Position numbers and translations under genes: made by a program. Below the pieces are notes generated by a model, which searched no databases, was not told the origin of the DNA, and saw only the letters and a program-made list of their open reading frames with translations. Shown here in pieces: positions 2,668 through 63,996 of a DNA stretch of 64,000 bases (its first letter is position 1; each line of letters starts with the position of its first letter). Source of the DNA: a virus; IMG/VR virus record IMGVR_UViG_3300020403_002374, positions 1-64,000 of that record, one strand, 5' to 3'.

Positions 2668-3130
2668 AGATTATTTGAATGATTCAGATGTGCTTGGTAT
2701 TGCAAACTCAGCAGCATCTTCGTTCTTTGGATCACTATCTAAAGACGAGATAAAAAACTGTGTTCTAAATGCGATATGGAAAGCATCTAAGAAATATGAC
2801 AAAAGGCACAAGACTAAATTTAGCTCTTATGTACACAAGGGGGTGGTATTAGAGTGCTTGAACCAAAGAAGATTTAATAAAAATAAGAATCAACTTGGTA
2901 ACTCGTCATATTACAGTATTCCAGACCCCAAAAACTGTTTTGAGCAAACTGATATGAAAGATTTGATTGATTCAGTTTGCGAAGATCCCTCACTGATTTA
3001 CGATAAATACTATAAAAATATGACTATAAAAGAAATGTCGGAAGATAGGGGTCTTTGTGGGGAAACGATTAGAATAAGATTGAAAAAAAATCTTGAAAAA
3101 GTAAAAAATGCGATCAAGAAAAGTGTATAA
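2651..3130 (+). CDS. Phage RNA polymerase sigma factor (sigma70 regions 2 and 4)
   Basis: AIWKASKKYDKRHKTKFSSY (region 2) and MTIKEMSEDRGLCGETIRIR (region 4 HTH); TTG start. Confidence 0.8.
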   Translation: MSKKIEDYLNDSDVLGIANSAASSFFGSLSKDEIKNCVLNAIWKASKKYDKRHKTKFSSYVHKGVVLECLNQRRFNKNKNQLGNSSYYSIPDPKNCFEQTDMKDLIDSVCEDPSLIYDKYYKNMTIKEMSEDRGLCGETIRIRLKKNLEKVKNAIKKSV

Positions 3131-3132
3131 TA
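3123..3132 (+). promoter_or_regulatory. Putative late promoter GTGTATAATA
   Basis: Overlaps the sigma stop codon; no -35 at 17 bp; lies upstream of a probable virion gene. Confidence 0.65.
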
Positions 3133-3205: not shown

Positions 3206-3871
3206 ATGCCTACTGTACGTCCTTCCGGTGCTGGCGATGAAGCTGTTGGCCTCGGAGAAGTTCGAGACGGTGGAACTGTCCTTCGTGGCGGTTCAAATTC
3301 CGCTGGTGTCATGACTAAGAACCTTAGCTTGGCCGACATCGCTGACGATCAAGGCCAGAGCTTTGGTTCAAAAGTTATTGCTAATCACGGAGATGGTGCT
3401 GCTACCACCGATATGGCTGGTGTGATTAAAGCTCAAGGTGGTGTTTCTCAGTCTGGTACTGCTGGAACTACGGTTCTTGGGTATCAATCTGATGGAACTG
3501 AATGGATTTTTAAAGGCGGTAATGTTACCACTACAATTGCTGGCGTTGCAAATACCACGCTGATTGGTGGTGCTGCTGGTCCTGATCCGGTTCGTGATAA
3601 CGTTGCTCAACTTGAGACATATCGCGATCATGGTTCTCTTGATCTTGATGTAGCCGCTGCTCCTTCTACCACCTTTAATCCAGCGAGAACAATCACTGGT
3701 GGTGGTGCGTTGAAAAATTACATCAACCCTGCGGTTGCTGGTGGTTCAACAAGCTCTGCCGATTCTGCTGCCAATACGACTCGCGGAATCCCCGGAGAGT
3801 TTGTCTACAGAGACGGTTCTGCAAATCCAATTCAAGACGACTTCAAATCTAAAGAAGCCGCTGAAGGGTGA
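3206..3871 (+). CDS. Gly/Ala/Thr-rich probable virion protein
   Basis: Composition, strong GCT/GGT codon bias, strong RBS, own promoter motif and terminator. Confidence 0.6.
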   Translation: MPTVRPSGAGDEAVGLGEVRDGGTVLRGGSNSAGVMTKNLSLADIADDQGQSFGSKVIANHGDGAATTDMAGVIKAQGGVSQSGTAGTTVLGYQSDGTEWIFKGGNVTTTIAGVANTTLIGGAAGPDPVRDNVAQLETYRDHGSLDLDVAAAPSTTFNPARTITGGGALKNYINPAVAGGSTSSADSAANTTRGIPGEFVYRDGSANPIQDDFKSKEAAEG

Positions 3872-3890
3872 TTTCCTAGATAGCATTATA

Positions 3891-3924
3891 CTTAGCCCCC
3901 AAATGCGGGGGCTAGGTTTTTTTT
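3891..3924 (+). terminator. Rho-independent terminator
   Basis: CTTAGCCCCC-AAATGC-GGGGGCTAGG followed by T8. Confidence 0.85.
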
Positions 3925-3935
3925 AGGAGATCGAA

Positions 3936-4511
3936 ATGATTACACCTGAATTTGCAGGAGCAGTAGCCACGCTAGTCGGGGCTGGAATAGCAATATTAGC
4001 ATTTGTGTGGAGAATATTTAAAGTAACTGGTGTCTTTTTAAAAGACCACGAAGAAATAAAGGTCTCCATCGAGACTATTAGAGCAGAGGTTACACCTAAT
4101 AGTGGAAAGTCATTGAAAGATACTGTAAATTCATTGAAAAAAACTTGTGATAGAATAGAAACTAGACAGAAGGTATTGGACCAAAGATCAAAGGCTGCAC
4201 TCCATTATTCAGATAGACCCCTATTTGAAACTGATGTGAACGGTAGATTGACTTGGTGTAATGCATCCTTCCAAGAATTAACCAAAGACAACGGTAGTTG
4301 TAAAGAAGGATTCGATTGGCTAACGGTTATTGACGATGATCGAAGAGAAGATTTCCTAAAAGAATTTAACTCTTGTCTAAAGATGTGTCGTAAAATAGAT
4401 ATTGAAACCGTTTCGGTACATGGACGAATTATACATTTTGTAGGATACCCGTACACAGTTGATACGGATGTCCATGAAGGTTTTTTAATTCATCTTTATA
4501 AAGGAGAATGA
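3936..4511 (+). CDS. Single-TM, coiled-coil, PAS-domain protein (possible holin or lysis regulator)
   Basis: N-terminal TM; PAS-like LFETDVNGRLTWCNASFQELT...GFDWLTVIDDDRREDF. Confidence 0.7.
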   Translation: MITPEFAGAVATLVGAGIAILAFVWRIFKVTGVFLKDHEEIKVSIETIRAEVTPNSGKSLKDTVNSLKKTCDRIETRQKVLDQRSKAALHYSDRPLFETDVNGRLTWCNASFQELTKDNGSCKEGFDWLTVIDDDRREDFLKEFNSCLKMCRKIDIETVSVHGRIIHFVGYPYTVDTDVHEGFLIHLYKGE

Positions 4512-4732
4512 ATATGGGCGAAGGTTCAAAAAGATTTAAACTTAATTGGGGAGACCTTACTGGGGTCGTTAAAAACGCTTTACTTGTCGGTGGTGCTGCT
4601 GCACTCACTGTTGTTGCAGAGAATTTGGAGGTTATCGACATTGGGTTGTATACCCCTTTGTTCGTGCCGATCATCGCTGTGGGTCTTGACACAGCAATTA
4701 AATGGATGAAAGACGCTTCAAAAGAGGATTAA
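4508..4732 (+). CDS. Small 2-TM holin-like protein
   Basis: 74 aa, two hydrophobic segments, charged termini. Confidence 0.55.
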   Translation: MNMGEGSKRFKLNWGDLTGVVKNALLVGGAAALTVVAENLEVIDIGLYTPLFVPIIAVGLDTAIKWMKDASKED

Positions 4733-4745
4733 CTAGGAGTTTGCG

Positions 4746-5669
4746 ATGGACTTTAATACACCACGCGATTTGCTAAATGCGTATCGCAATGGTTTTGAGG
4801 GTAGCATATGCGATCAAGAAGAGACCGCAGAGTTACTCGCTAAATTAGAGACTCCACTCTTTGGCGTTGCTGCACACACACTCTCTGGTGCAGGGGAAGG
4901 TAAACTTTCTCTGCCCTTTCTTTCTTTGCTAAAATACGACAAGGGTTTTGGCCCAGCAGAAAAGCAAACAACCGGAGACTGTGTATCGCACTCAACTAGA
5001 AACGCTATTGATGTGACAAGAGCAGTAGAAATCGACATAAAGGGTGAGTCAGAAGAATTCGTTAATCGTAGTGCAACCGAAGCAATCTATCAATCCAGAG
5101 GCCACAAGGGTCAGGGTATGACCTGTTCGGGTGCAGCCAAGTATGTCCACCAGAAAGGTGGGATTCTTTTAAGAAAAAATTATGGTTCAGTAGACCTATC
5201 TAAATATAATTCTTCTCTTGGTGCTAGACATAGAATTCCTAAGAGTATTTATATTGATGAAGCTAATAAGCATCAGGTTAAAACCATATCAATGATTACA
5301 ACTATAGAAGAAGCTAGAGATGCTTTAGCCAATGGTTACGGCATATCTGTGTGTTCTGGTTATGGTTTTTCAAGCCGCAGAGACTCAAACGGTATCGCTA
5401 AAAGAGGTAGCGGCTGGAGTCATGCTATGGCTTGGATTGCTTGCGATGACACTAAAAAGCGTTATAGAGAAACATTATTCTTAGTTCAAAATAGTTGGGG
5501 TAAATGGAATAGTGGGCCGAAAGTTCATGGTCAACCGGAAGGTAGTTTTTGGATTAGAGAAAGAGATGCTAGAGGTATGTTGGCATCAAATGGCTCTTGG
5601 GTATTCAGCGATGTAGACGGTTTTCCAGCGAGAAAGCTGCCTAATTATAATTTTAAAAAGTTTCTTTAG
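4746..5669 (+). CDS. Papain-family (C1A-like) cysteine protease
   Basis: QTTGDCVSH (oxyanion Gln, catalytic Cys), WSHAM (His), QNSWG (Asn); no signal peptide. Confidence 0.85.
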   Translation: MDFNTPRDLLNAYRNGFEGSICDQEETAELLAKLETPLFGVAAHTLSGAGEGKLSLPFLSLLKYDKGFGPAEKQTTGDCVSHSTRNAIDVTRAVEIDIKGESEEFVNRSATEAIYQSRGHKGQGMTCSGAAKYVHQKGGILLRKNYGSVDLSKYNSSLGARHRIPKSIYIDEANKHQVKTISMITTIEEARDALANGYGISVCSGYGFSSRRDSNGIAKRGSGWSHAMAWIACDDTKKRYRETLFLVQNSWGKWNSGPKVHGQPEGSFWIRERDARGMLASNGSWVFSDVDGFPARKLPNYNFKKFL

Positions 5670-5678
5670 GGTAATGAT

Positions 5679-6263
5679 ATGTACAAGTATTTAGTATTAT
5701 TTTGTCTGCTGCTCTCTGGTTGTATGCCATCACCAAGTGTGCATGTAGAAAGTCATCCAGACTATAGAGCATTTATTTCTACGAGAATAGCCTTAGCATC
5801 AATGGTTAATCCTGTAGTCCCAGACGATGAAGAAAATGAAGAACTTTGCGATGGCTCTGGTTGGATTGTTCAAGGTGATGGTCACAGAACCGAATGTCCG
5901 GGCTGTAAAGCCTGCGAAAAGTCAGCTTATCTACAAGAAGATGAATATTATGTGTACCATTTCGGTGCAAAGTGGTGTGCCCCCTGCGAAAAGTTAAAGA
6001 AAGAGACTTGGGAAAATAAAGATGTTAAGCAATTTTTTAAGAATAAGAACATAGAACTCATCTTGTTAGATGTAGACAATCCAAAACACAGTGAGTTTTT
6101 TAAGTATTACAAAGTTGAAAAATATCCAACCGTGATACTTTTAGATAAAGATAAGTTGTCAAATGTAATGTACAGATCTATTGGTTTTAAAGATAGTGAT
6201 ACTATGATTAAATCTATAGATGAAAATATTCCCGTATCCGTTTTGGAAGACGACAATGAATGA
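5679..6263 (+). CDS. Thioredoxin-fold lipoprotein with Zn-binding insert
   Basis: Lipobox LLLSG|C15; CDGSGW...CPGCKAC; WCAPC redox motif; cis-Pro motif YPT. Confidence 0.85.
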   Translation: MYKYLVLFCLLLSGCMPSPSVHVESHPDYRAFISTRIALASMVNPVVPDDEENEELCDGSGWIVQGDGHRTECPGCKACEKSAYLQEDEYYVYHFGAKWCAPCEKLKKETWENKDVKQFFKNKNIELILLDVDNPKHSEFFKYYKVEKYPTVILLDKDKLSNVMYRSIGFKDSDTMIKSIDENIPVSVLEDDNE

Positions 6264-6588
6264 TCTAGAAAAAGTAGCAAATAGAATATCTTCTCACATA
6301 TCAGCAAAAGATCAAAACTTTGGAATTGACCCCGCAACTGTAACACTGATTATAAGTATTATTATAAATCTTGTTAGATTGTGGTGGAATTGTAGAAGTG
6401 CTGAAAAAATTCAAGGGGAACTTCGCAACCCGTCTTGGTTGTTTAAGTTGTTTTTGAAGAGAGAGATAAGAAAAAAAGTAAAGTCCGGTAATCGTAGAAA
6501 GACGATGTACGGTGCTTTCATAGATGTTGGTAAAAATTTATCGGAAAAAGAATTAAATAATATTTTAAGAGAAATCGGAGGAAACTAA
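6256..6588 (+). CDS. Small membrane protein
   Basis: TM segment ATVTLIISIIINLVRLWW; ATG at 6256 overlaps the upstream gene end. Confidence 0.7.
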   Translation: MNDLEKVANRISSHISAKDQNFGIDPATVTLIISIIINLVRLWWNCRSAEKIQGELRNPSWLFKLFLKREIRKKVKSGNRRKTMYGAFIDVGKNLSEKELNNILREIGGN

Positions 6589-6875
6589 TGACTATGTTTC
6601 AGTGGGTAATGATTGGTTTGGCGGGTATCCTTGTTGCACCGATCTTTTGGGAAAAGGCTAAGGGTTTTATTCCACAAAGTAAACAACCTGAACCTGTACC
6701 AGAACCACCAGAACAAGACACGGAAGATACTTGCGATGGGTTGGTTGATGTTGTTGAGTGTTGGGATCATCTTTTACAGTGTTGTGAATCGCAAGATATG
6801 CATGATGCTTCAAGAGAATTAAGAAAGATCTTTCCCCTTTTCGTAATTTCTACCCCAAAGGAGGAGGAAGTATGA
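6588..6875 (+). CDS. Small N-terminally anchored membrane protein
   Basis: N-terminal TM, Pro/Glu linker, Cys-containing helical C-terminus; RBS GGAGG. Confidence 0.75.
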   Translation: MTMFQWVMIGLAGILVAPIFWEKAKGFIPQSKQPEPVPEPPEQDTEDTCDGLVDVVECWDHLLQCCESQDMHDASRELRKIFPLFVISTPKEEEV

Positions 6876-7339
6876 GCAACAATTTAAGAATTGGACTAGC
6901 GTTTATTCTAGTTGTCGTAGGATTATTTGGTGAGTCAACAATTGGTTGGTTTAAAGATAATGTAGAAGTTGTTAATGAACCGGAAGTAAAAATTACTGAA
7001 CCTTCATTAGAAAATAAAGAGTTAGTAAGACCAATTAGTGAAATAGATTTCTCTAAAGAAGATGCCAAATTAGTTTCTTGTTATTTTTTAGAAGTAGCAG
7101 ATGTGGTTGAAGATGATTCACAAGTAATTAAAACAACTGAAACATTTTCTAACTTTAATCTTATGTCTGGGCTTTTACATTTTAATACAAAGTTTGCAGG
7201 TAAATACGATGGTCTTGGAGATGCCGTAGAAAGTGCTGTTCAAAACACTATAGGTTTAGATAATCAAGCCTTGACACCTGACAAAAGAAAAGATTTGGTA
7301 GAAATCTTAGAAGCAATCGCTTGGAGTGCCAATCAATGA
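6872..7339 (+). CDS. Signal-anchor or exported protein
   Basis: N-terminal hydrophobic helix; RBS GGAGG. Confidence 0.75.
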   Translation: MSNNLRIGLAFILVVVGLFGESTIGWFKDNVEVVNEPEVKITEPSLENKELVRPISEIDFSKEDAKLVSCYFLEVADVVEDDSQVIKTTETFSNFNLMSGLLHFNTKFAGKYDGLGDAVESAVQNTIGLDNQALTPDKRKDLVEILEAIAWSANQ

Positions 7340-7515
7340 GTTTAATTGATGGTATCCTAGAAAGCGTTCTCAAAAAATATGGTATTGAAAAAACCGATAT
7401 TGACAAAGCAAAAAGAGTCATGGATAAAATAAAATTCACCAAACGTAACGGTGAAAATTATCTAATCATTGACATTGGTGATGGAGTAGAATTAAGCATA
7501 AAACAAAAAGACTAA
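7336..7515 (+). CDS. Small hypothetical protein
   Basis: ATGA overlap with the upstream stop. Confidence 0.65.
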   Translation: MSLIDGILESVLKKYGIEKTDIDKAKRVMDKIKFTKRNGENYLIIDIGDGVELSIKQKD

Positions 7516-7518
7516 ACC

Positions 7519-7561
7519 AAACCCACAGTATCTCTTGACTGCTGATATTGTGGGTTTTTTT
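7519..7561 (+). terminator. Rho-independent terminator
   Basis: AAACCCACAGTATC...GATATTGTGGGTTT hairpin followed by a T-run. Confidence 0.8.
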
Positions 7562-7572
7562 ATATTTACCGC

Positions 7573-7601
7573 TTGACAATTTCGGTTTCGTAGACTATAA
7601 T
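7573..7601 (+). promoter_or_regulatory. Sigma70-type promoter, GACTATAATA class
   Basis: TTGACA-17-TATAAT upstream of nrdA. Confidence 0.9.
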
Positions 7602-51647: not shown

Positions 51648-52405
51648 TGAGTGATGATATGTTTGAGGGCGTTGCTCTTGAGACTCCAGTAAGTGTTGAC
51701 ACTAGCGTAAAAGATGAGATTGTGGCAGATGGTCCAGACCCCACATCTCCAGAATGGAACGACTATGTTCTTGGTTTATTTGCTGAAAACGAGTTGTACG
51801 ATGGTAGACCATTGTGTGCTGGTCTCAGGAGAGTAGCAGAACTTCTGCTAGGAAGGATCGTTATCAGTAGACCTACTCAGGTTTTCCCCCCTACAGCGGG
51901 GGACACTATTGGTAGAGCTACTGTTATTTGGGAAGTGGTATTTGAAGATGGTAGTATTTTCAGTGACGTTGCAGACTGCTGGGAAGGTAACACAGACGAC
52001 ACATTTTGCGTCTTTAACACTGCTACAGCAGCAACCAGAGCAGAGGGTAGGGCTTTAAGAAAGGCTCTTAGACTCAAGACTGTGGCCGCAGAAGAGATGA
52101 CCAAGAAGAATACCGCAAGTATTGTACGTAGTATTAGCCAAACTAAGGCGATGGAAGCGACAGAAGGCGAGTATAATGATTCGCAGAGAATGACTGACCC
52201 ACAAGCCAACTTCATTGATGTCAAGTGTAAGCAGTTGAACCTTAACGTCGCGGAATTCTTTAAGGTGGTATTCGACGTAAATGTAAAGAGAAAAGTAGAT
52301 AAGGGTCAAGCGAGTGCTGCGATCCAAAAACTTAATGATTTCCAAGCTGACAAGGGTCTCATTCCAGACTCTATCAACTCTTACTCATCCGATTGGAGGG
52401 ATTAA
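51647..52405 (+). CDS. Rad52/Erf/Sak-like ssDNA annealing protein
   Basis: Beta-rich core, then ATAATRAEGRALRKAL helix; C-terminal MTDPQ...ASAAIQKL helical domain. Confidence 0.55.
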   Translation: MSDDMFEGVALETPVSVDTSVKDEIVADGPDPTSPEWNDYVLGLFAENELYDGRPLCAGLRRVAELLLGRIVISRPTQVFPPTAGDTIGRATVIWEVVFEDGSIFSDVADCWEGNTDDTFCVFNTATAATRAEGRALRKALRLKTVAAEEMTKKNTASIVRSISQTKAMEATEGEYNDSQRMTDPQANFIDVKCKQLNLNVAEFFKVVFDVNVKRKVDKGQASAAIQKLNDFQADKGLIPDSINSYSSDWRD

Positions 52406-52800: not shown

Positions 52801-53265
52801 TTAGGTAGGTGTAGATTCAATCAAAACTCTGGCAGTAAGAGTACCGGTAGCACTTACAGTCTGACCTTGGTGTGCATACCACTGCAAGTCAGTCATTGCA
52901 TCTTGCAACTTATTCGCTCCCCACTTATCGGTGTTACCAGCTTGCCAAACAAACGGTTCGCCACGGGTCAAGTTAACAATAACATTTGTTCCGCCATCAT
53001 CCATGAGATAGCCAGAAGCGGCACTTGCACCTGTAATTTGAGCGGCAGTCTGCTCCCACAGAAACAATACAGATTGTGCGTCAGCAGCAGTCTCAAGATT
53101 AAAGCCGGGAATCGTTTTTGCTGATGTGATAGTGCCGTGTCCTACTACTTCAGCAGAGATATTAATCTCTAAATTACCAGTCTTTGAATAGTTCTCTGTA
53201 ATAGATTTAGTTGAACCACCGGCTGTGTAATTTGTAGTTTGAGCAATAACGTGTGTAAAAGACAT
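52801..53265 (-). CDS. Probable virion protein
   Basis: Thr/Ala/Gly-rich; strong RBS AGGAG; in the late-strand block. Confidence 0.65.
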   Translation of the reverse strand: MSFTHVIAQTTNYTAGGSTKSITENYSKTGNLEINISAEVVGHGTITSAKTIPGFNLETAADAQSVLFLWEQTAAQITGASAASGYLMDDGGTNVIVNLTRGEPFVWQAGNTDKWGANKLQDAMTDLQWYAHQGQTVSATGTLTARVLIESTPT

Positions 53266-53292
53266 GTCAAAATCTCCTATTTAAAATATTCG

Positions 53293-54084
53293 TTATAGGT
53301 ATTCTAGTGTAAAGTAAAGTCCAAAATCAGTTTTGCTTCCAATACTATCGGGGGAAGCACTCAAGGCTACGTACCAGTCGTGACGTGTTGCACGACAAGA
53401 GTTGCCAGATCTTGCAATATAATTAGTATATCCGCCCGCTGTGGAAACATTTGAACCCGGACTATCTTCTGCAATTCTTGTTTCGTCACCGCTAGTATTC
53501 AATCCACTTGGCCCCGGACCGGGAGTCATTACCAAGTCTGCCATAGCAGTTCCATCTGTATACTCACTCCATTGATGAACGTCATCTTCGCCCCTAAATT
53601 TTAATGGGCCAATATCAGAGTCGTAATCGACTCCTTCTGTGGGATTAGGATGCCTAATCTCATAGACTTGAGTAGTAACACCAACCGCATGTGTATTGAT
53701 GTCGTTCCTGTCGAAGATTCTTAATTTGCAGTTCTGAACCCTTACACCAGCAGCATCATCATGCTCGAATCTAATATTCAATGGTGCTTGAAAGTTTGGA
53801 ATTCCAGAAACTCCAATTGGAGTCGTAGAGGATTGGATAAGACAAGTATTCTCATCGGCAGTTTCTACGTACTTAATATTTGAGCATCTAACACCAGAGG
53901 CGGTTCCTGCGGCGTTTGTTACGTATGTCGAGGTTTGATATTCACCAACTGGCACAGAGATACCAAATCCACCACCAAAAAAGCCAAGACCGGACCCGGC
54001 AGTGTGGTTGATAGTATCTGGCGAAGTCGAATGATCGGATACAAGCCAATCGTTATTATTCGCATGAAATGTAATTGTAGGCAT
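53293..54084 (-). CDS. Probable virion protein
   Basis: Gly/Ser/Thr-rich; RBS AGGAG; preceded by GTGTATAATA. Confidence 0.65.
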   Translation of the reverse strand: MPTITFHANNNDWLVSDHSTSPDTINHTAGSGLGFFGGGFGISVPVGEYQTSTYVTNAAGTASGVRCSNIKYVETADENTCLIQSSTTPIGVSGIPNFQAPLNIRFEHDDAAGVRVQNCKLRIFDRNDINTHAVGVTTQVYEIRHPNPTEGVDYDSDIGPLKFRGEDDVHQWSEYTDGTAMADLVMTPGPGPSGLNTSGDETRIAEDSPGSNVSTAGGYTNYIARSGNSCRATRHDWYVALSASPDSIGSKTDFGLYFTLEYL

Positions 54085-54116
54085 TATTTTGATCTCCTAT
54101 TAAAAGATATCCGTAT

Positions 54117-54126
54117 TATTATACAC
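54117..54126 (-). promoter_or_regulatory. Putative late promoter GTGTATAATA
   Basis: Intergenic, 32 bp upstream of ATG 54084, no -35. Confidence 0.65.
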
Positions 54127-54134
54127 AAAAATGG

Positions 54135-57100
54135 TTAAGATGTTGAAATAGAGGCGGAAATAAATTGCTCCGTAAGTTTCATAGACGCAGAACCTCCGGC
54201 AGGACCAGCACCGTGAAACTTTGCATCGTAATCACCAGCAAGCCAAGTCATAGATGTATCGTTGTGGAAACGGTAAAAAACGTCATATGCATTATTTTCT
54301 GATAAGAAATTAGGATCTAACACAATCTCAGTCTCGTTCTGTTCTACAACAAAGGCATCAGCCGCTCCGGTGTCTTGATCGTTGTAAGTCCCCTGTGTAA
54401 ATTGTGGTGCTGTTTTTGATGATGAAACTATAAATTCCGTTTGGTTTTGTGCGTCAATTACTTGACGAGGTTTAGGGTCAGTAACTACATAGGATTGAAT
54501 TTGTGGAGCTAAGAAAGAAAGATCCAAATCTTTCCCATTTGTAGACTCTATAATGTCTAATCTAATTGGTCCTTTAAATCCACTACTCAAAATAGTGCCG
54601 CTAGAAATTGTGTTTGTAACGTTGACCCCAATACCCTCATATTTGAGTTTTACTGGGACACCCTCACCTACACCAGCAATATCAGCAACCTCAGTGACAC
54701 GTAATACCACGTTTTTACTTTCTATTCCAACCTTATCTCCCACACTAAATCCCGTACCAAATCCATTACCATTGTAAATGATTGATTTGATTTGATTACT
54801 AGTCAAATCAGTGATAAATGAAGGGTTTTCATTAAATGGGGCCTGTGTCTTTGGAAACATTTGGTGATCCAGTCCATCTAGTAATATGTTGATTTCCGAT
54901 TCATGCCAATTATCTGCAACTGATGGGACACCTTGTTCGTAAGAAAAATATCTATATGGTAATAGTTTACCAACCCGCGAGGTGACAATAGGCCAAAATT
55001 GCTCATCTGCCAAGGGTGGATCGAAAAACGATGGTGTTGGATTTGTCAGGTCTATAGTAGCATTAGAGAACATAAGAGAGCCAGATTCCAAGTATTGTGT
55101 AACATAATAACCGTCGTTTGCATGTACTTCTGCTCCTGCATACGAGGTATCTTCATGCAACAACCATCTAGCCGGTCTTTTAAAGTCCACTGTGCTACTT
55201 GGTACAGGTGCGAAATAATTCCAAACAATCGGTTCTCCTGCTGCATTTTGACCAGATAGCTCTTTCTTCAAACCATTTCGATTCGATAGTGTTACTGAAG
55301 AACCGGTATCATCGTAAGCAATTATTCTATTCCAGCTAAAAGCACTGTTGTTGTTAAAGTTTGTAGTATTACTTGTTCTGTCTAAATACATGTCATAGGC
55401 ATAATCTATATCTGGATTGTAATGGTGGACTGCAAATACTCTTGGATCATATACAGTTTGATTTCTTGGATGTTCATGGAATATTCTAGCGGCAAGCAAA
55501 GCATAGCCTATTTTTTGGTAGTCTGGCAGAGGACCAGCCGCTCCCCAAGTATGTGTAATGTCAAAGGAAACACCCCCGCCAAATTTAAATTCTGCTGATA
55601 CATCATTTCCCATGCCATACTTGTTGTCAGTGGTAATTGTAATAGACTTTGTTGCTCTAACTGTTGTGAATGTACTAATTACACCAAACGCATTAGGACC
55701 AAGCCGCATGGATGGCGGTGCCCACTGAAACGCACCGTCACCAGTTTGACCCAGAAACGAACCGATAATATTCTTCTCTGTAGCCCAATAACACTGCTTG
55801 CTCAAACCATTATAGCTATATTTGTATATATCATCTATATCTGATCCATACTTAAGTCCGTTTTGAATGTCAAATAACTGATTTTTATAATTAAATTTAT
55901 CTTGAAACTCTCTGGTTTCAAAACATCTAGTAACTGGTCTACTGAAGTCAAATTGGGTTCTGTGAATTTCAGATTCCATCCCCGTTCTCACTTCTTTGGT
56001 CGTTGTAGTAAGATTTTGAGGGCTACTAGTATTGTCTGGATCTTGAGGTGGATTTGCCTTTTTGCTTCCAAATTGCTGATAAGCCTCGATCTTTAATGGT
56101 CTAAACATTAATGTTCCGCCAATAGGTTTAAAATCAAAGGCACTATCATTTTCAGAATATTTAGGTGTCTCACCCTGTACGGCTTCTACCTTTCTAAGGT
56201 ATTCGTTTGCACCCTTGTATATGTTTGTATCTCTAGCTGGAACCCCAGCCTCATACATATCAGCCAATTTATGAATACTGTAAAGCGGGCTACCATTGAC
56301 ACCAGAGGGTGAAGCGTTAAGAGCTATATCTGCTGGTAACTGTACTAAAGCTGTTGATCCGTTGACAGTTTCCTGAAAAAACATAGAACCTTCTGGATGA
56401 AAATGACATCTTGACCATCTGTGGTCTATGTCGCCATCAAGATCTTGCCTTGGTTCATTGGCAGGTTTAGAGTTTGCATGACGACAATTGTTTCTGTTAG
56501 TACCTGCGTTAACGTCAAAACCTTCTGGATCTCCAACTTGAAAAGGTTTTGCATCTGCTGCTATCTGACCCGCTGTGAAAGATTGCAAATTAGACTCACG
56601 AGAAGCTCTAAGACCTGTAAAATAAGACCAAGGTTGTGCTACATAATCTCTACTCTCACCAAAATAATCACTATTACTGGCGTATCCGCCTTCAACAAGC
56701 AAACCAAAAAAGCCTCCGGTGTATGCACCATTCCTACCGTAAATGCGATTCCCCGGATTTGCATTAATATTTATGCCGCAAGAATTCGTTTTAGGGTTGG
56801 TGGTAGCGATAGTGCAAATATCGGATTCGCCTGCTGCACGACCTCTAATTCCGCAAACTTTTGAATCAAGACAATCAAAACTAGTGGTTTGAACATATCC
56901 TCGTGCTGGAATCCAATAATGTCTATTCTCAGGTATCTTATTGCTGAACGGTTTTATATGGTTATATCCACCATCTTGTCCGTAGTCAATATCATAATTT
57001 AATTCGTAATCATATTGATGTGAACCATAAAATGGATATTTACCAAAAAGAGCGTTGGTGTGTTCATTAAACCTGTTATAATAATAGGCGTGGAATCTTT

Positions 57101-58673
57101 CTTCAATATCTCTTGGGCCTACGTTATAGTCCACGGCATTTGACTCGTCAGAACTAGCTTTGTACCAAGAAGCACTATTGGTCATAAGCTGATAGATTTC
57201 TCCAATCTTACCAACATCGCCCGCACGCACATCGACTTCTGGCTCACCGGAAGGGTCAATACCTAACTGAGACACAATCCAGCGACCGTCTATTCTTGTC
57301 AACATAACATCTTCATTTTTACGGAATGTTCGATCCGTAGTCATGTTGTAAACGATCAATGTTTCTTTCTTTTTATCGTTTTCGTCTTCACATCTTGTTT
57401 CTTCTGAATTAAGATAGTTTGGTTGCCACTGTAATTTATTACCATTCTGCATACGTATGGGCATTGCTTCACCACTACTCAATACAAATCTATCCTTCTC
57501 ACTAATATTATCTAAAGCCTCTTTAATGTCTAGCTCTATAAGCCTATCTACATCTGGACTGTTAGCTTTGGGAGGTAAATCACTAACCATTTTAGCGATT
57601 AGATTTGAGTTACCAGCTTCAAACTTCCCGGTATTTGAATTGTAAGACATGTCTAATTCACCAGCAGCTTTGTTTACAGATGCCTCTCCTTCATCTACAT
57701 CTGTCCAAGCTCCATCAGCAGATGCTTCATAAGCCTTACCAGTCACATCACGTCTAACCCCTACAAATGTAGAACTATTTAGTGCGATACCTTGATTGGT
57801 GGTGGGTAAAGTTTTGTCATCATATAGGTACATTTTGAAGTTTACCCATTCTGTAATTGGGCACTCTTCTATAAGTCCATCATTAACATTCACATAAAAA
57901 GTTACTTGACCACTCCAACTAACAACTGGTAAACCACCCTTTGCAGCTTTGATGTCTGCTAAAAGTTCGTGTTCACCCCAAATATCGCTTTTGTTTTCTT
58001 TACCAAAAGTAGTATCATCATCTTTGTCCCAAAGTGTTCTTGGGAAGAACTTATCAAAACCTACATGCCACCTGTTCATCTGTATGAGGTTGTACAGGGG
58101 TTCAATTTCTGAACTCATAGATGGATCTGAATTTAATTCAAACTTATCTTGTGCTGTCGTGTCTTTAAAAATTAAATCACCATCAAGCTCATCCAAAGTT
58201 CCACCGATAATAGGGTTTGCGGAATTGTAGTAATCCCAATTTACATTACCTAAATTAACAGTTCCAATTTGACTTTTGAATTCAAAAGAACCTCCATCAC
58301 CTTTTAAGTCTCCGGGTGCATCATTGCCGTACTTATCACTTAAATTCTGCCTTAAATATCTACCGTCATTTTTTACACCGTCTGTAGGTTTCCATCCGTA
58401 CCAAAAGAATTCAGTGTTATCAAAACTCGATTCAGTTGAGTCATTTTCATAAAATCCAAGAATTCCACCATAACCAACATTTGGGTTATCAAAAGTGTCA
58501 TCAATGCCTTGTTTCTTGTTGAGGTGTCTTCGGTTTACGTAAACACCATCTCCATTTTTAGTATTCCACCAGTCATAAAGAGATCCCGTAGTCATAGTAG
58601 ACAAGCCCAACTCAGCAAAATATGGGTGGTTGGTTTGTATAATATGATAATCTTTTGTAATTGGTTTTTTCAT
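54135..58673 (-). CDS. Large probable tail/baseplate-associated virion protein (1512 aa)
   Basis: Long beta-rich, Asn/Asp/Gly/Tyr-rich ORF in the structural block; no enzyme motif recognised. Confidence 0.6.
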   Translation of the reverse strand: MKKPITKDYHIIQTNHPYFAELGLSTMTTGSLYDWWNTKNGDGVYVNRRHLNKKQGIDDTFDNPNVGYGGILGFYENDSTESSFDNTEFFWYGWKPTDGVKNDGRYLRQNLSDKYGNDAPGDLKGDGGSFEFKSQIGTVNLGNVNWDYYNSANPIIGGTLDELDGDLIFKDTTAQDKFELNSDPSMSSEIEPLYNLIQMNRWHVGFDKFFPRTLWDKDDDTTFGKENKSDIWGEHELLADIKAAKGGLPVVSWSGQVTFYVNVNDGLIEECPITEWVNFKMYLYDDKTLPTTNQGIALNSSTFVGVRRDVTGKAYEASADGAWTDVDEGEASVNKAAGELDMSYNSNTGKFEAGNSNLIAKMVSDLPPKANSPDVDRLIELDIKEALDNISEKDRFVLSSGEAMPIRMQNGNKLQWQPNYLNSEETRCEDENDKKKETLIVYNMTTDRTFRKNEDVMLTRIDGRWIVSQLGIDPSGEPEVDVRAGDVGKIGEIYQLMTNSASWYKASSDESNAVDYNVGPRDIEERFHAYYYNRFNEHTNALFGKYPFYGSHQYDYELNYDIDYGQDGGYNHIKPFSNKIPENRHYWIPARGYVQTTSFDCLDSKVCGIRGRAAGESDICTIATTNPKTNSCGININANPGNRIYGRNGAYTGGFFGLLVEGGYASNSDYFGESRDYVAQPWSYFTGLRASRESNLQSFTAGQIAADAKPFQVGDPEGFDVNAGTNRNNCRHANSKPANEPRQDLDGDIDHRWSRCHFHPEGSMFFQETVNGSTALVQLPADIALNASPSGVNGSPLYSIHKLADMYEAGVPARDTNIYKGANEYLRKVEAVQGETPKYSENDSAFDFKPIGGTLMFRPLKIEAYQQFGSKKANPPQDPDNTSSPQNLTTTTKEVRTGMESEIHRTQFDFSRPVTRCFETREFQDKFNYKNQLFDIQNGLKYGSDIDDIYKYSYNGLSKQCYWATEKNIIGSFLGQTGDGAFQWAPPSMRLGPNAFGVISTFTTVRATKSITITTDNKYGMGNDVSAEFKFGGGVSFDITHTWGAAGPLPDYQKIGYALLAARIFHEHPRNQTVYDPRVFAVHHYNPDIDYAYDMYLDRTSNTTNFNNNSAFSWNRIIAYDDTGSSVTLSNRNGLKKELSGQNAAGEPIVWNYFAPVPSSTVDFKRPARWLLHEDTSYAGAEVHANDGYYVTQYLESGSLMFSNATIDLTNPTPSFFDPPLADEQFWPIVTSRVGKLLPYRYFSYEQGVPSVADNWHESEINILLDGLDHQMFPKTQAPFNENPSFITDLTSNQIKSIIYNGNGFGTGFSVGDKVGIESKNVVLRVTEVADIAGVGEGVPVKLKYEGIGVNVTNTISSGTILSSGFKGPIRLDIIESTNGKDLDLSFLAPQIQSYVVTDPKPRQVIDAQNQTEFIVSSSKTAPQFTQGTYNDQDTGAADAFVVEQNETEIVLDPNFLSENNAYDVFYRFHNDTSMTWLAGDYDAKFHGAGPAGGSASMKLTEQFISASISTS

Positions 58674-58674
58674 C

Positions 58675-61600
58675 CTAGTTCTCCCGATTTAATCCGTCGT
58701 TTGTTCTATTGTCCATGTGCTCATTGTTTTTATCCACCTTGTTTGGTAAAAACTCACTTGGTGTTGTAGAGTACCCCAAGAACATACTTGCTAAAGATCC
58801 TACAGAATTTTTAGATAGGTTTTGCATAGTTTTCCCCGGCTCATCGCTTTGTAAGACACGTTGCATATCTCTTGTAGTCATCATAGTTCCCCCCTCTGAC
58901 CCTACAATTAATACCTGTTCATCTAGTTCCTCGCCTAGTTCTCTATTGGCCTCTCTTTGTGCTGAATTTTTCTCCACGGTATCTAATAGTGTTTTTCCTC
59001 CAGCCTGCATCACAGAATTTACTAAATCAGAACTTGTTGATCTTTTTCCAAGACCCCTTCTTGTTGCAGCATTTTTCTCATCGGTAAGTTTTTGTCTTTC
59101 TCTTGCAATTTGACTTATAGCCATTTCTTTTTGTTTAGCTAGTTTTCCGAATTGAGAAGTGTACAGGTCTAATTTGACAGTTGTCTTTACTCCACCCTCA
59201 CTGACGGATATACCAATTGATGTAATTAGTGGTCCTTCATTTTGTAGTGCTGTTGCTAAAGCAATCCCAGTCGGTGCATCTGGTATTACAAAACCCCCAC
59301 GCTCACTAAATAACAACAAGCTATTAGAAAAGTTTGCCTTCGTGCTACCCGCCTCATTTAGTAATTGATACCCCGCATAATTCCAAGGTGTCAACTCTTC
59401 GTCTTTCACAAACTCAACTTTACCACCTATATCAGAAAACTTTATTCTTGCGTCTGCACCGGGATCTAATTGTGATGCGGAAACCCAAGGACCATAACAT
59501 CTTTCCATTGACATCAAGGGTATAACAAATAGGTCAGGAACAATTGGAGATGGTGATGAGTAACCGAGAGAAACTTGAGGTTGACCGGCTATAAAGCCCT
59601 GATTAATTATCTTAGTTTGCTTTCTAGCCTCTGTAATCTGTCCTAGAGTAAGCTGGAGCCAGTTTTCTGGCTTTCCCGGTCTATAACCCGACTCTGGTAG
59701 ATTGTACCCCCCGCCAAAAATCTTAGCCTTACCAAGTTCAACATAATCCAGAAGGCTAGGTAGGTAATGACTACCAGTTAGTCCATATCCACTAGCTGCT
59801 GCTTCTGCTTCATCTTGAGTGTCAAATACTGGTGCTGGTCCACAAGCAAGTGGTATTCCAGAGTTCGTTTCCGCAAGGTTCGGTTTGCTAAACGCAGGAT
59901 TCATAAATACAACATCTTGCATCATTAAGTGTTTTTTCTCCACAGATTTAAATGCTTGCAGAGGTCCATCTTTCCACCTTATGTCTGCTGTGCTTTTAAT
60001 TCTTCCGGGCACAGTAACCAAAGCGTAGACATGTTCATCATCTAGGTTTTTAGTGTCTGACTCTATGATATCTGCTTCTAACACAGGGTCATAATTTCTT
60101 TTGAAACACCACCAATCTTCAGCGTACCCATCTTTACCACCATCTTTTGGAACTGAAAAAATGGGATTAACATCAGGATAATCTGTAATATACTTAGTGG
60201 TGCAGTTGTTAGAATCTTTTACTGCTCTAATCTCCGGTTCAGGGACAGTCAACTTCATCTCGTATTCTCTAGCCCAAACGTCAGTAGACTTTTTCTCTAG
60301 TTTTGGAGGCATATAAAACTTTTCATCTAATTCGCACCTAACAAAGGCCATAGACGGAGGCTGTCTTTCTTTCAGTCTTTGACCCTTTTCATATTCTTCT
60401 AATGAGGAAAATGATAGATCCGGTTTGCTTTCATTATTATTTGGAAGCTGCTCAACAACATCTGGCATGAATGTTCCGCCATAAGAAATTGTTTGTTGTG
60501 ACATTTCTCCACCATTAACACCGCCAAACTCTAGCAGATGACTGTTCTCATACTTGACATAACATTGCATCCGATTAGACTGAGACATAAAATTAGTGAC
60601 ATCCATCGGGCACAACCCCTGCTGTATAGCAAGCGGTAACTTTGACCAATTACCAAGAATATCAGTGTAATCTAAGGCGGTGGTATTTATACCAAATTGA
60701 TCATATGTAAAATACCCACCCTGTGGTTCAGGTTTATAATTCCATTCCCACTGTTCACTGAACGGGTTGTAGTTCCCCTTTAATGCTCCACCGTCCCAAC
60801 TAGCAGCAATAGGTAATCTATCGTTTAAGTTTTTAGGATGATCTAACGGGTCTTGGTAATCTTTTAGGTAATGATGTACAACGTCACCTTCATCCACCCT
60901 TAGCATTTGTCTAATTAATTCTAGACGAATCAAAAATTCTGGAGAGGTTTCAACATTAGGATTATAGTCTACTGCTCTAGGTTTGAAACCAAAGGGTCCA
61001 AATTGAATATTATTTAGAGCTTCAGAACCATCAAAGATTTTTATTCTATTTTTAAAATTAACATTTGCTCGTTTAGGAATTCTAACTAGGAATTTTTTAC
61101 CTAAGCACTCTTCAGCCACCTTTCGGACAAACTCGTATACCTTCTTAGCATTTTCATCATGCTTCTTTGCCGTCTTATCTATATTGTACAGGAATTTATC
61201 TAATAATCCGCCCTCTCCGTCTGCACCGCCTGTTATAGCTTCTACCTCGGCAATTCTATCTTCATTGCCCGACAAATTATTTTGCAAAGCATCCCAATTC
61301 TTATAGACTTTTTTTGCCTCTTCTATATTTTTGACAAATTCTTTGTATTTAGAGGTTGTCTTATATTCTTGATTTGTATCGGATTTTTGTTGTACAAACT
61401 TTCTAAGCTGTGTTTCTAATTTATCTATTCTCTTTTTAAGAATATTTTTAGATGGCACCTCCAGTAAGGGACTTCCACTATTTTCAAACTCTTTTTTAAG
61501 TTCAACCGTGTCAGTTACCAGCTTCGTTTTGGCGTTTATGATCTTACCAACACCAGCCTCAAGAATTCCAATTCTAGTTGCTCTCTTGTAATAAAGAGGA

Positions 61601-63996
61601 TAGCCAAATGGTGGGGAGCAAGGGCTTGCTAGAGTATCGGTATACTCATTCAGGTACTCTTTATCTGATCTGAATACACATCTAGGGACAGTAACCGCAT
61701 ATTGTTTACCCTTAATTCTATTCAAAATACCTTCAACAACATCTTTATCTGACCCACTATCAAGTCCATCAAAATCAACAGCGGTCTTGAAATCATTCAT
61801 AACGTCATCAATCTGATCATTAACGGAGTTTAACGAAGAAAGAAAAGCAGAATGTTCAGACACATCTTCTATAAAAGTGTCATTGTATGAAAGAAGAAAG
61901 TTTTTCCAAGACTTGTAACTAACTAATGCAGCCCTAAGTTCCATCTCTGTAGCTATGTATTGATTACCAACACCAAAAGCATTTAGTGAAGAAGAGTCCA
62001 AAAGAATCTGTTGATACCCGCCAAAACCTCTAGGAATAGTTACAGCCTTTTCTCCAATCATTCCGTAGTAAGGTATTGCCTGCTGTTGCAACATAGTCGT
62101 CAGATCCCACTGTCTCTGACCTATCAGCCTAACCTTTTCTGTATCGAAACGTTGAACCTGTAATTCATCCCTATCTCTCTCGGTAGAAAAATAGTACATG
62201 TCAACTTCTTGACCACCAACCAAAAATTTATCTGTCACAACGTTAGAAAGCTCAAATCCAATATCTCTATTTTCTACGAATACGCCTCTGCTATTTAAAT
62301 TATCTAGATAAGATTTGATTGCACCGTATCTTGGTTGTTGAGTTTTATCAATAGCATCTAACCTAATAATCCCAGCAACAATATTTTCTTTTTTACCAAG
62401 CAAAACCTGTTGCTTGTTGTAATTATATAAAAATTCACAAGATGGGTGGTCAATAACAGGTAGTAGAGAGACAAAAAGTTCATGACTAATAATGTCACAA
62501 AGCTCTTGTGCAAAACTAAGAAGATCCAACTTGTCGAAATCCATGTAATAAAGCAATGGAATTTTTTCTGTAGGAATTCCACCAAAATCTACCACATAAT
62601 TAAAACCTCTAAAGTTTATTTGACTGCCAAACCCCGCATTGAGAAACTCATTGTCTTCTGGTGTGCCTGCACTAAACGGTGTACCAGTTAATGGATACTC
62701 TCCGTAGTACCTAAACATGGCAGCAAGACCTTGTGATATTCTATACCAAGGCATACCTTTTTCGCTACGTCGAGAAAAACCTTGACCGGTGATAGGCCAG
62801 AATTCAGGAGGATTTTTACCGTCTGGTTTTCCTCGTTTTGGAATATAGTACTGATCTAATAGCGTAACTTCTTGCTGTGGAAACTCTACCTGTCGGCCTT
62901 GACCTTCAGAAACATTCCAAGTATACGATGGAATTGTGATCTTAGCTTCAGGACCATCGGTTTTCCAACCTTCAACTCTATCCCAATACGATGAAAATCC
63001 GTTGTACAAAACCCTGCCGTTATCAAGGACTCGTTTTTCTACAATCCCGGCTCGTGCCGAATTGCCTGCTAGAAACTCCAACATCTCTACGGACGGGTCG
63101 TGTTCCAAAAAACCATATAAATTTAATATATTCTTATTGTTAAACGTAGTACCCTGATAGTTATTAAACAATATCTGCACATTAGATAGGATTTCTCTAG
63201 GGTCATTAACGTTTACAGCATATACTGGTTTACCCCCTTGTCCCCTATTTTCTGTATAGCTTTGTAGAATACCGCCAAAAACAAAATGATTCCTACCTCT
63301 CCAATAGGTATCTTTGTCCCAAAGTAAACTTCTATCTTCTATTGTTCCAGTAATTTCGTCGTATAAAAAATATGGCTGAAGATCTACTTTGCTAAAATCT
63401 GGTCCAAAACCATCTGCATGTAATTGCTCCACTGTGATTCTGGGGAACTCATAATTAAATGCATTTTCAGAAGCTGGCCCAACCTCAATCCTATCTGGTA
63501 AAGTTTTTACTTTGTATAGATCGTCAAAAGTCTGTCTATAAGCCTGTTCTACAGACGCTGGATTTTTACCAAACTTAAAATAGACAGGTGTGCCAACCGG
63601 TGGTGGCTTAAACTGATCTGCTTTAGGAACATATTTTGCGTTAGCTGTTTCTGTGCCATGATAATGATCATCACCTTCACCAAGTCTGCTTCTATCAGAT
63701 AAATTATATTCATCGTTGACTAAATTTAGACTTAATGTAGATGTTGAATCACCAAAACCTGCATTTAGATTAAAGTCTCTGATTGAAGCACCCAGAAAAG
63801 TTTGCTGTATAAACCCCTCGTTACCTACATTTGCTGCTCTTAAATTGTCCCTTGTCCAACCGGCACTAGATAGTAGTCCACTAATACCTTGTGGTAGTAC
63901 GAAATGTTCATACCAATACCCCTCTTGATCATTCGGCTCGTTGTATTGACCACTAGAAGGTATCATCCCAAAGTGGAAATCATTTTTATCTGTCAT
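58675..63996 (-). CDS. Very large probable tail/baseplate hub protein (1773 aa or more; start near the window edge)
   Basis: N-terminal FLGASIRDFNLNAGFG..STLSLNLV and C-terminal ITSIGISVSEGGVKTT resemble tail-hub proteins; internal coiled coil. Confidence 0.6.
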   Translation of the reverse strand: MTDKNDFHFGMIPSSGQYNEPNDQEGYWYEHFVLPQGISGLLSSAGWTRDNLRAANVGNEGFIQQTFLGASIRDFNLNAGFGDSTSTLSLNLVNDEYNLSDRSRLGEGDDHYHGTETANAKYVPKADQFKPPPVGTPVYFKFGKNPASVEQAYRQTFDDLYKVKTLPDRIEVGPASENAFNYEFPRITVEQLHADGFGPDFSKVDLQPYFLYDEITGTIEDRSLLWDKDTYWRGRNHFVFGGILQSYTENRGQGGKPVYAVNVNDPREILSNVQILFNNYQGTTFNNKNILNLYGFLEHDPSVEMLEFLAGNSARAGIVEKRVLDNGRVLYNGFSSYWDRVEGWKTDGPEAKITIPSYTWNVSEGQGRQVEFPQQEVTLLDQYYIPKRGKPDGKNPPEFWPITGQGFSRRSEKGMPWYRISQGLAAMFRYYGEYPLTGTPFSAGTPEDNEFLNAGFGSQINFRGFNYVVDFGGIPTEKIPLLYYMDFDKLDLLSFAQELCDIISHELFVSLLPVIDHPSCEFLYNYNKQQVLLGKKENIVAGIIRLDAIDKTQQPRYGAIKSYLDNLNSRGVFVENRDIGFELSNVVTDKFLVGGQEVDMYYFSTERDRDELQVQRFDTEKVRLIGQRQWDLTTMLQQQAIPYYGMIGEKAVTIPRGFGGYQQILLDSSSLNAFGVGNQYIATEMELRAALVSYKSWKNFLLSYNDTFIEDVSEHSAFLSSLNSVNDQIDDVMNDFKTAVDFDGLDSGSDKDVVEGILNRIKGKQYAVTVPRCVFRSDKEYLNEYTDTLASPCSPPFGYPLYYKRATRIGILEAGVGKIINAKTKLVTDTVELKKEFENSGSPLLEVPSKNILKKRIDKLETQLRKFVQQKSDTNQEYKTTSKYKEFVKNIEEAKKVYKNWDALQNNLSGNEDRIAEVEAITGGADGEGGLLDKFLYNIDKTAKKHDENAKKVYEFVRKVAEECLGKKFLVRIPKRANVNFKNRIKIFDGSEALNNIQFGPFGFKPRAVDYNPNVETSPEFLIRLELIRQMLRVDEGDVVHHYLKDYQDPLDHPKNLNDRLPIAASWDGGALKGNYNPFSEQWEWNYKPEPQGGYFTYDQFGINTTALDYTDILGNWSKLPLAIQQGLCPMDVTNFMSQSNRMQCYVKYENSHLLEFGGVNGGEMSQQTISYGGTFMPDVVEQLPNNNESKPDLSFSSLEEYEKGQRLKERQPPSMAFVRCELDEKFYMPPKLEKKSTDVWAREYEMKLTVPEPEIRAVKDSNNCTTKYITDYPDVNPIFSVPKDGGKDGYAEDWWCFKRNYDPVLEADIIESDTKNLDDEHVYALVTVPGRIKSTADIRWKDGPLQAFKSVEKKHLMMQDVVFMNPAFSKPNLAETNSGIPLACGPAPVFDTQDEAEAAASGYGLTGSHYLPSLLDYVELGKAKIFGGGYNLPESGYRPGKPENWLQLTLGQITEARKQTKIINQGFIAGQPQVSLGYSSPSPIVPDLFVIPLMSMERCYGPWVSASQLDPGADARIKFSDIGGKVEFVKDEELTPWNYAGYQLLNEAGSTKANFSNSLLLFSERGGFVIPDAPTGIALATALQNEGPLITSIGISVSEGGVKTTVKLDLYTSQFGKLAKQKEMAISQIARERQKLTDEKNAATRRGLGKRSTSSDLVNSVMQAGGKTLLDTVEKNSAQREANRELGEELDEQVLIVGSEGGTMMTTRDMQRVLQSDEPGKTMQNLSKNSVGSLASMFLGYSTTPSEFLPNKVDKNNEHMDNRTNDGLNREN

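Follow-up and report, generated by a model that had tools for sequence, protein, structure and literature searches.

A papain-family protease and its predicted membrane-anchored docking partner in a putative phage lysis or egress cassette

How might a phage leave its host when no peptidoglycan-degrading enzyme can be recognised among its genes? The question is raised by a cassette of eight genes (positions 3936-7515) in a viral DNA stretch from IMG/VR record IMGVR_UViG_3300020403_002374. The window, that is, the whole stretch analysed, covers the initial 64 kb of a viral contig of 101.6 kb with a GC content of 39% and an estimated completeness of 61%. To our knowledge, all characterised tailed-phage lysis systems rely on a peptidoglycan-degrading enzyme. 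A previous interpretation made without database searches (the sequence-only reading) took the cassette for a lysis system in which a papain-type protease and a lipoprotein thioredoxin dismantle the wall of a planctomycete host. We retain from it the conserved envelope cassette, the intact protease, the lack of a recognised muralytic enzyme and the late-type motif, whereas the host, the protein wall and the central place of the thioredoxin found no support. The cassette is best explained as a late, envelope-directed lysis or egress module with a papain-family effector instead of a muralytic enzyme, a proposal to which we give about an even chance of being correct.

The putative effector is the product of the third gene. 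Its AlphaFold2 (AF2) model, with a predicted local distance difference test score (pLDDT) of 93.4, adopts the papain two-lobe fold. The closest structure is xylellain 3OIS (Foldseek 8.5e-10; VIA Z 21.6, root-mean-square deviation 2.9 A over 232 residues), and many C1A enzymes match the model at VIA Z 17-19.5. A profile of the protease family retrieved caricain (1e-4) and xylellain from the PDB, and its motifs align with Cys25 and His159 of caricain. Q74, C79, H226 and W251 do not vary among 64 relatives with identities down to 31%, in which N249 and S250 reach at least 90% conservation. The N-terminus of the 307-residue protein is not hydrophobic and carries no signal peptide. Conserved catalytic residues and a papain-like model thus bear out the intact, signal-less papain-type protease of the sequence-only reading. 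The alignments begin at about residue 50 with mature C1A enzymes and at residue 4 with proenzymes, so that residues 1-50 resemble a short pro-segment. Pfam gives no match to the window's protease even at an E-value of 1, and PF00112 (Peptidase_C1) matches only 3 of the 64 relatives (best E-value 3.6e-4), with the gathering threshold not reached. The protease is a distant, separate subfamily of the papain family, and its proteolytic activity is predicted.

With xylellain, the C1A pro-cathepsins and pro-papain the phage enzyme shares the fold and the Gln/Cys/His/Asn-Ser-Trp catalytic set, and its pro-segment aligns with the part of the C1A propeptides nearest the mature domain. In contrast to these enzymes, with which it is only about 12-18% identical, it has a much shorter pro-region and an added C-terminal docking tail; its gene is accompanied by membrane partners and its relatives are often invaded by inteins. 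The CHAP and NlpC/P60 endolysin domains of clan CA are also papain-like Cys-His hydrolases, and their target at phage lysis is the cell envelope. However, Pfam CHAP and NLPC_P60 find nothing here, and the fold matches are C1A proteases.

Across loci the protease is 70-87% identical, compared with 23-69% for its neighbours. The same cassette is present in a collinear relative of 172,984 bp with terminal repeats (G002, 100% complete), in which the protease is 78% and its neighbours are 36-53% identical to those of the window. Insertions of at least 100 residues interrupt about one quarter of 150 representative relatives drawn from 50%-identity clusters: 24 lie at the Cys79 site and 13 just after His226, few proteins having both. 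P0121, P0122, P0126, P0128, P0131, P0139 and P0141 are among the interrupted relatives. Pfam Intein_splicing, Hint and LAGLIDADG_3 are present in P0121, P0126, P0131 and P0139, and the junctions read QTTGD/C...HN/CVSH and ...HN/CMAW, so placed that the catalytic Cys occupies the +1 position of the extein. By these sequence features, the insertions that were checked prove to be inteins, and they contain LAGLIDADG endonucleases; the window's own gene has none. An intein load at two catalytic residues marks the protease as one of the most constrained genes of these phages.

Where the sequence-only reading had put the thioredoxin beside the protease as its key helper, it overlooked the 155-residue protein encoded by gene 7. 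Synteny, natural fusions and a complex model single out this anchored protein instead of the thioredoxin as the conserved companion of the protease, fused to it in some relatives and predicted to bind it. In the 170-kb lineage its family adjoins the protease in 68 of 90 related loci. A hidden Markov model (HMM) of the family also places it beside the protease in a 141-kb phage (L096), a 60-kb (G914) and a 43-kb phage (G918), two contigs (L099 and L100) and four Planctomycetota loci (L097, L098, L115 and L116), that is, in at least five phage lineages as well as in planctomycete prophage-like loci. Moreover, 14 of the 150 representatives combine anchor, partner domain, linker and protease in one polypeptide, as detected with the HMM on the N-terminal 150 residues. 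A model of the protease-partner complex, computed with alignments for both chains, reached an ipSAE of 0.66 compared with 0.00 for the best of three controls; the mark for this score is attained by 58 of 80 solved complexes and by 2 of 110 mismatched pairs. The runs have at least 80% of contacts in common, and the partner has a pLDDT of at least 84. In the model the last ten residues of the protease, disordered in the monomer, sit on partner residues 92-129, including the conserved F104 and Y112. This supports, but does not prove, that the protease binds its 155-residue partner via the C-terminal tail.

Variants of the protease indicate where the pair may act. Relative P0267 begins with a twin-arginine translocation (Tat)-like RRDALK signal, and an N-terminal hydrophobic transmembrane (TM) anchor is found on the proteases of G918 and G919 and on that of the prophage-like L115. 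In the fusion proteins acidic residues follow the anchor; by the positive-inside rule, this flank would place the partner domain and the protease outside the cytoplasmic membrane. Since Tat-like, anchored and fused variants exist, the family probably works in the envelope. The window's protease, being signal-less, would need membrane permeabilisation to reach its partner. Synteny of the protease with membrane-protein genes persists down to about 30% protease identity, and small multi-TM proteins accompany protease and partner in every lineage examined. Together, natural fusions and exported variants provide a concrete topology for the protease-docking pair.

Table 1. Genes and expression signals in and around the cassette (positions in the window)
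Feature	Position	Strand	Remarks
Late-type promoter motif GTGTATAAT (extended -10 like)	3123..3131	+	5' of the 221-residue gene preceding the cassette
Intrinsic terminator, hairpin and T-run	3890-3917	+	11-bp stem, 7 GC pairs; -21 kcal/mol, z -4.15
Gene 1, 191-residue membrane protein; TM 6-24, long coiled helix, C-terminal PAS fold	3936..4511	+	AF2 pLDDT 82
Gene 2, 74 residues; two TM segments (~19-40, 42-63), charged C-terminus	4508..4732	+	Hydrophobicity
Gene 3, papain-family cysteine peptidase (clan CA, C1-like), 307 residues	4746..5669	+	Short pro-region ~1-50; predicted C-terminal docking tail 298-307
Gene 4, 194-residue exported thioredoxin; lipobox LLSG/C, WCAPC, Cys-rich zinc-ribbon-like segment	5679..6263	+	
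Gene 5, ~110 residues; one central TM, basic C-terminus	6256..6588	+	Homologues at 40 loci, one of them in the distant phage L096
Gene 6, 95 residues; N-terminal anchor, acidic tail with 4 Cys	6588..6875	+	
Gene 7, signal-anchored helical protein, 155 residues; predicted protease docking partner	6872..7339	+	Synteny, fusions, complex model
Gene 8, small soluble protein, 59-64 residues	7336..7515	+	In 35 loci, 32-77% identity
Closing terminator, hairpin and T-run	7519-7557	+	-19.4 kcal/mol, z -6.06
Consensus sigma-70 promoter TTGACA-17-TATAAT	7573..7601	+	12/12 match; starts separate nrdA unit

In the mechanism that we propose, the protease is made in the cytoplasm without a signal, and its short pro-region may keep it as a zymogen. 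The 74-residue two-TM protein would permeabilise the inner membrane, possibly timed by the TM-PAS protein of gene 1. Tail residues 298-307 of the protease would then dock on the periplasmic helical domain of the 155-residue protein, whereby the enzyme is kept at the outer face of the inner membrane; synteny, natural fusions and the complex model lend support to this step. There the protease would cut an envelope target, for which structural or tethering envelope proteins and the peptide stems of peptidoglycan come into question; a substrate protein and a peptidoglycan peptide are both candidates. In the oxidising periplasm, the exported WCAPC thioredoxin may maintain the catalytic thiol in its reduced state; alternatively, it may reduce disulfides of the pro-enzyme or of the target. 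In other lineages the protease would be exported directly, by means of a Tat-like signal or of an N-terminal anchor, or by being fused to the partner.

A small multi-TM protein, a signal-less enzyme, anchored proteins and a lipoprotein are likewise the components of canonical holin-endolysin(-spanin) cassettes (lambda S-R-Rz/Rz1; T4 t/e), and the T4 holin t has a large periplasmic domain. The distinction between soluble and signal-arrest-release (SAR) endolysins is paralleled by that between the soluble protease with its holin-like protein and the signal- or anchor-bearing proteases. In the prophage-like Planctomycetota locus L115, partner, protease, exported thioredoxin and an anchored protein are immediately followed by the large terminase and portal genes, which is a classic lysis-cassette position. 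In contrast to the canonical cassettes, the phage effector belongs to the papain-family peptidases and is neither a glycosidase nor an amidase nor a known peptidoglycan endopeptidase; there is a predicted docking partner for the C-terminal tail of the enzyme; the lipoprotein is a thioredoxin and not an o-spanin; and the role in lysis is putative.

Several points weigh against a lysis module with a protease as its effector. We know of no C1-family peptidase that cuts peptidoglycan, and the 74-residue protein is holin-like by architecture only. A Bacteroidota chromosome of 3.93 Mb (G479) contains a stand-alone 311-residue homologue of the protease (L114:10300-11235, E-value 5e-75). Its neighbours are of housekeeping type as judged by N-terminal sequences (one, for example, is agmatine deiminase-like), with neither membrane partners nor phage genes nearby. 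Because of this homologue, the protease family is not confined to lysis contexts. An unrecognised endolysin could exist in this phage. The cassette, whose late expression is putative, lies behind a strong terminator and has no promoter of its own. Finally, tblastn found no homologue of the protease among 50,697 deposited phage records, and there is no cultured system.

The module is widespread and strongly conserved. The protease-bearing lineage is common in ocean metagenomes, where the protease has 1,584 matches among 90% clusters; at 50% identity 1,420 cluster representatives match it, mostly viral, and the Atlas clusters nearest to it are 85-93% viral. Viral-contig searches with the relatives P0229 and P0217 gave no match, blastn of the cassette region matched nrdA only, and literature searches retrieved no published account of such a protease module. 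The wider proposition is that several unrelated tailed-phage lineages (about 38-173 kb, GC 34%-62%) burst their hosts without a muralytic enzyme. Their papain-family protease would leave the cytoplasm through a holin or by direct export, be caught by a signal-anchored docking protein and often be joined by an exported thioredoxin. We put this forward tentatively, as a possibility that we would on balance rather doubt. If true, it would establish a new class of phage lysis effector that acts on an envelope protein or peptide target, the module would define a protease-docking pair together with a periplasmic redox helper, and it would point to envelope components besides peptidoglycan as holding some bacteria together.

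Whether a muralytic enzyme has merely escaped recognition bears directly on this proposal. Eleven muralytic Pfam families were searched in six frames and none was found in the window's own genome (G000) or in four relatives (G001-G004, two of them 100% complete). Pfam scans of 128 open reading frames (ORFs), almost all of them encoded by G002, covered the giant tail proteins as well as the 70 kb that the window's contig lacks and returned no muralytic domain, and five muralytic families were absent from seven complete genomes of four other protease-bearing lineages. By Pfam, the tail proteins of the window and of G002 contain no virion-associated wall hydrolase domain either. The absence of PF05838 (GH108) is uninformative, since this family matched no control genome. 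For the families searched, the statement that the window encodes no amidase, lysozyme or endopeptidase endolysin stands for its genome (11 families) and extends to nine complete relatives (11 families in two, 5 in seven). Three cultured marine myophages with ordinary hosts yielded one above-threshold match only when subjected to the same six-frame test with three families; because they also score poorly, the missing families are modest to weak evidence.

It is therefore conceivable that an unrecognised muralytic enzyme cuts the peptidoglycan and that the protease module treats another layer, such as outer-membrane tethers or S-layer and envelope proteins. The module would then be a lysis accessory, to be likened to the spanins or to mycobacteriophage LysB. 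We consider this unlikely, but of the alternatives it survives best. Marine phages with ordinary hosts are often Pfam-negative, anchored inner-membrane proteins together with a lipoprotein resemble the spanin architecture, and the structural matches include Cwp84 (Z 17.9), a C1 peptidase that processes the S-layer. None of the lipoprotein and three anchored proteins of the cassette matches a spanin family, and the 155-residue one is predicted to bind the protease; a PHROG comparison of all eight cassette proteins found no lysis-annotated family. Against an accessory role, neither the 128 ORFs nor the six-frame searches of the nine complete genomes revealed the enzyme that it demands, and no gene of the cassette is more conserved than the protease.

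An export of the protease domain, or its tethering to the membrane, as seen in several relatives would also suit remodelling of the envelope without lysis, be it to exclude superinfection, to destroy the phage's receptor on the infected cell or to mature phage proteins that are exported. In keeping with this, the partner proteins evolve fast, like proteins that face the host surface, and homologues persist in bacterial chromosomes. Yet the window's protease is signal-less, so that it could work on the outer side only once the membrane is damaged; the cassette has a late context and in L115 is terminase-adjacent, whereas exclusion genes are usually early or prophage-expressed. We assign this explanation only a small probability.

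The sequence-only reading had gone further and proposed that, in a Planctomycete host, the phage thioredoxin reduces and the protease cuts a disulfide-cross-linked protein wall that takes the place of peptidoglycan. Some observations accord with it. The WCxPC motif of the thioredoxin is of the reductase type, and the module does occur in Planctomycetota chromosomes with prophage neighbours. G002 carries 24 tRNA genes in two clusters (L089:8019-19960 and L090:193-5009), in a region that the window's contig lacks; most of them decode A/T-ending codons, a hint of a host richer in GC. For Planctopirus limnophila, one report describes some peptidoglycan-synthesis genes as non-essential (PMC10632474). 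The premise of a disulfide-linked protein wall is nevertheless outdated, as Planctomycetes do possess peptidoglycan (PMC4432640).

Nor does the distribution of homologues single out this phylum. Among 300 genomes sampled from each phylum, a protease homologue occurs in 3 other Planctomycetota, 1 Bacteroidota and 0 Pseudomonadota, numbers too small for a host assignment, and the phage itself has 39% GC. The synteny of the cassette is conserved across related phages; cellular homologues are sporadic, and a Planctomycetota host is not supported. Near-copies of the phage lineage (L092, L091 and L093/L094, one of them, with 152,655 bp, approximately a whole phage) occur in metagenome-assembled genomes (MAGs) labelled SAR202, Flavobacteriales and Promethearchaeota. 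We rejected these labels as host evidence: they disagree with one another, and the contigs are phage-sized or short, in line with mis-binned phage DNA. The inconsistent labels of the closest contigs, and the lack of the thioredoxin from the module in several lineages, further speak against the planctomycete redox model, which we regard as improbable.

Processing of virion proteins, degradation of host proteins or counter-defence by a cytoplasmic protease, with the membrane-gene setting being incidental, would agree with the missing signal peptide and with stand-alone cellular homologues, but is very improbable given the ClpP-type protease already present in the head module, the natural fusion to the signal-anchored partner, the Tat-like and anchored variants and the far-reaching synteny with membrane proteins. 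A prohead protease in particular was ruled out by that ClpP-type enzyme of G002, whose structural module (96-128 kb, L086-L088) also encodes a GDP-mannose dehydratase and a lipid-desaturase-domain protein.

The other products of the cassette largely match their first description. Gene 4 encodes a lipoprotein thioredoxin, as was stated: the lipobox and WCAPC are accompanied by above-cut-off Pfam matches to Thioredoxin_2 (2.7e-11) and Thioredoxin (7.5e-9). Each of the proteins occupying this slot in relatives has a signal, a lipobox or an anchor at its N-terminus; a cytoplasmic reductant of ribonucleotide reductase is thereby ruled out. Since only about 30 of 74 have WCxPC, and the thioredoxin is absent from the 38-60 kb lineages, where a small Cys-bearing exported protein replaces it, the thioredoxin is a frequent accessory and not the core of the module. 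Like periplasmic thioredoxin-like reductases of the TlpA/ResA/CcmG type, it combines an exported or lipid-anchored thioredoxin fold with W-C-x-P-C; it differs from them in being phage-encoded, in its extra Cys-rich zinc-ribbon-like segment and in its position beside a protease.

For gene 1 the description as a TM-PAS protein was correct, with one N-terminal TM helix and a PAS fold identified by Foldseek: LOV/PAS structures match the AF2 model at 3.8e-7, along with many PAS entries, and the Pfam PAS match is weak and below cut-off (E-value 4e-3). The protein is a candidate lysis timer or sensor. Its fold excludes a muralytic enzyme hidden in this gene. The 74-residue protein has the two hydrophobic segments ascribed to it and occurs in 40 of the 90 loci with 48-86% identity; it matches no Pfam or PHROG entry and no holin family. 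Genes 5 to 7 each encode one TM segment and gene 8 a small soluble protein, in accordance with the three membrane-anchored proteins and one small protein originally listed. The start of gene 5 is likelier ATG 6256 than ATG 6220, which would give a 122-residue protein with TM 34-56, and that of gene 8 is likelier ATG 7336 than TTG 7321.

All eight plus-strand ORFs are present and tightly coupled, with gaps of -44 to +13 nucleotides, and folding energies corroborate a hairpin with T-run on either side, so that the packing of eight genes between two intrinsic terminators is confirmed. The cassette is located downstream of the motif GTGTATAAT, also written TGTGTATAAT, as had been noted. This 9-mer recurs in intergenic positions upstream of structural genes, at 54126 and 90392 in G000 and at 51809, 88022, 102402, 116040, 119122 and 169827 in G002. 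Because the same motif fronts structural genes in both genomes, the label late-type appears reasonable for the copy at 3123. Directly behind this copy, a 221-residue Gly/Thr/Ala-rich protein (3206-3871) is encoded, whose gene runs up to the strong terminator. The protein matches no family, is conserved in relatives (31-71% identity) and may be an abundant late protein.

A hairpin comparable to the one at 3890-3917 is found in the relative L006. In G002 it is absent from the gap 5' of the cassette, which measures only 26 nucleotides. Expression of the cassette by read-through of this terminator is plausible. At the other end, the sigma-70 promoter forms the downstream boundary, and L006 has an equivalent 5' of nrdA.

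Elsewhere in these genomes, FG-GAP repeats are the only Pfam family in the giant tail proteins (up to 4,440 residues; window 52801-63996, G002 51-96 kb), and the early region of G002 includes a DNA polymerase II intein domain match and a UvdE endonuclease. A terminator-like hairpin with a pyrimidine-rich (T/C) tail also lies inside the protease gene itself, at 4890-4914 of the window and at the same position in G002 (L090:11572-11595); it overlaps the segment encoding the conserved GxGKLSLP and may reflect mere protein constraint.

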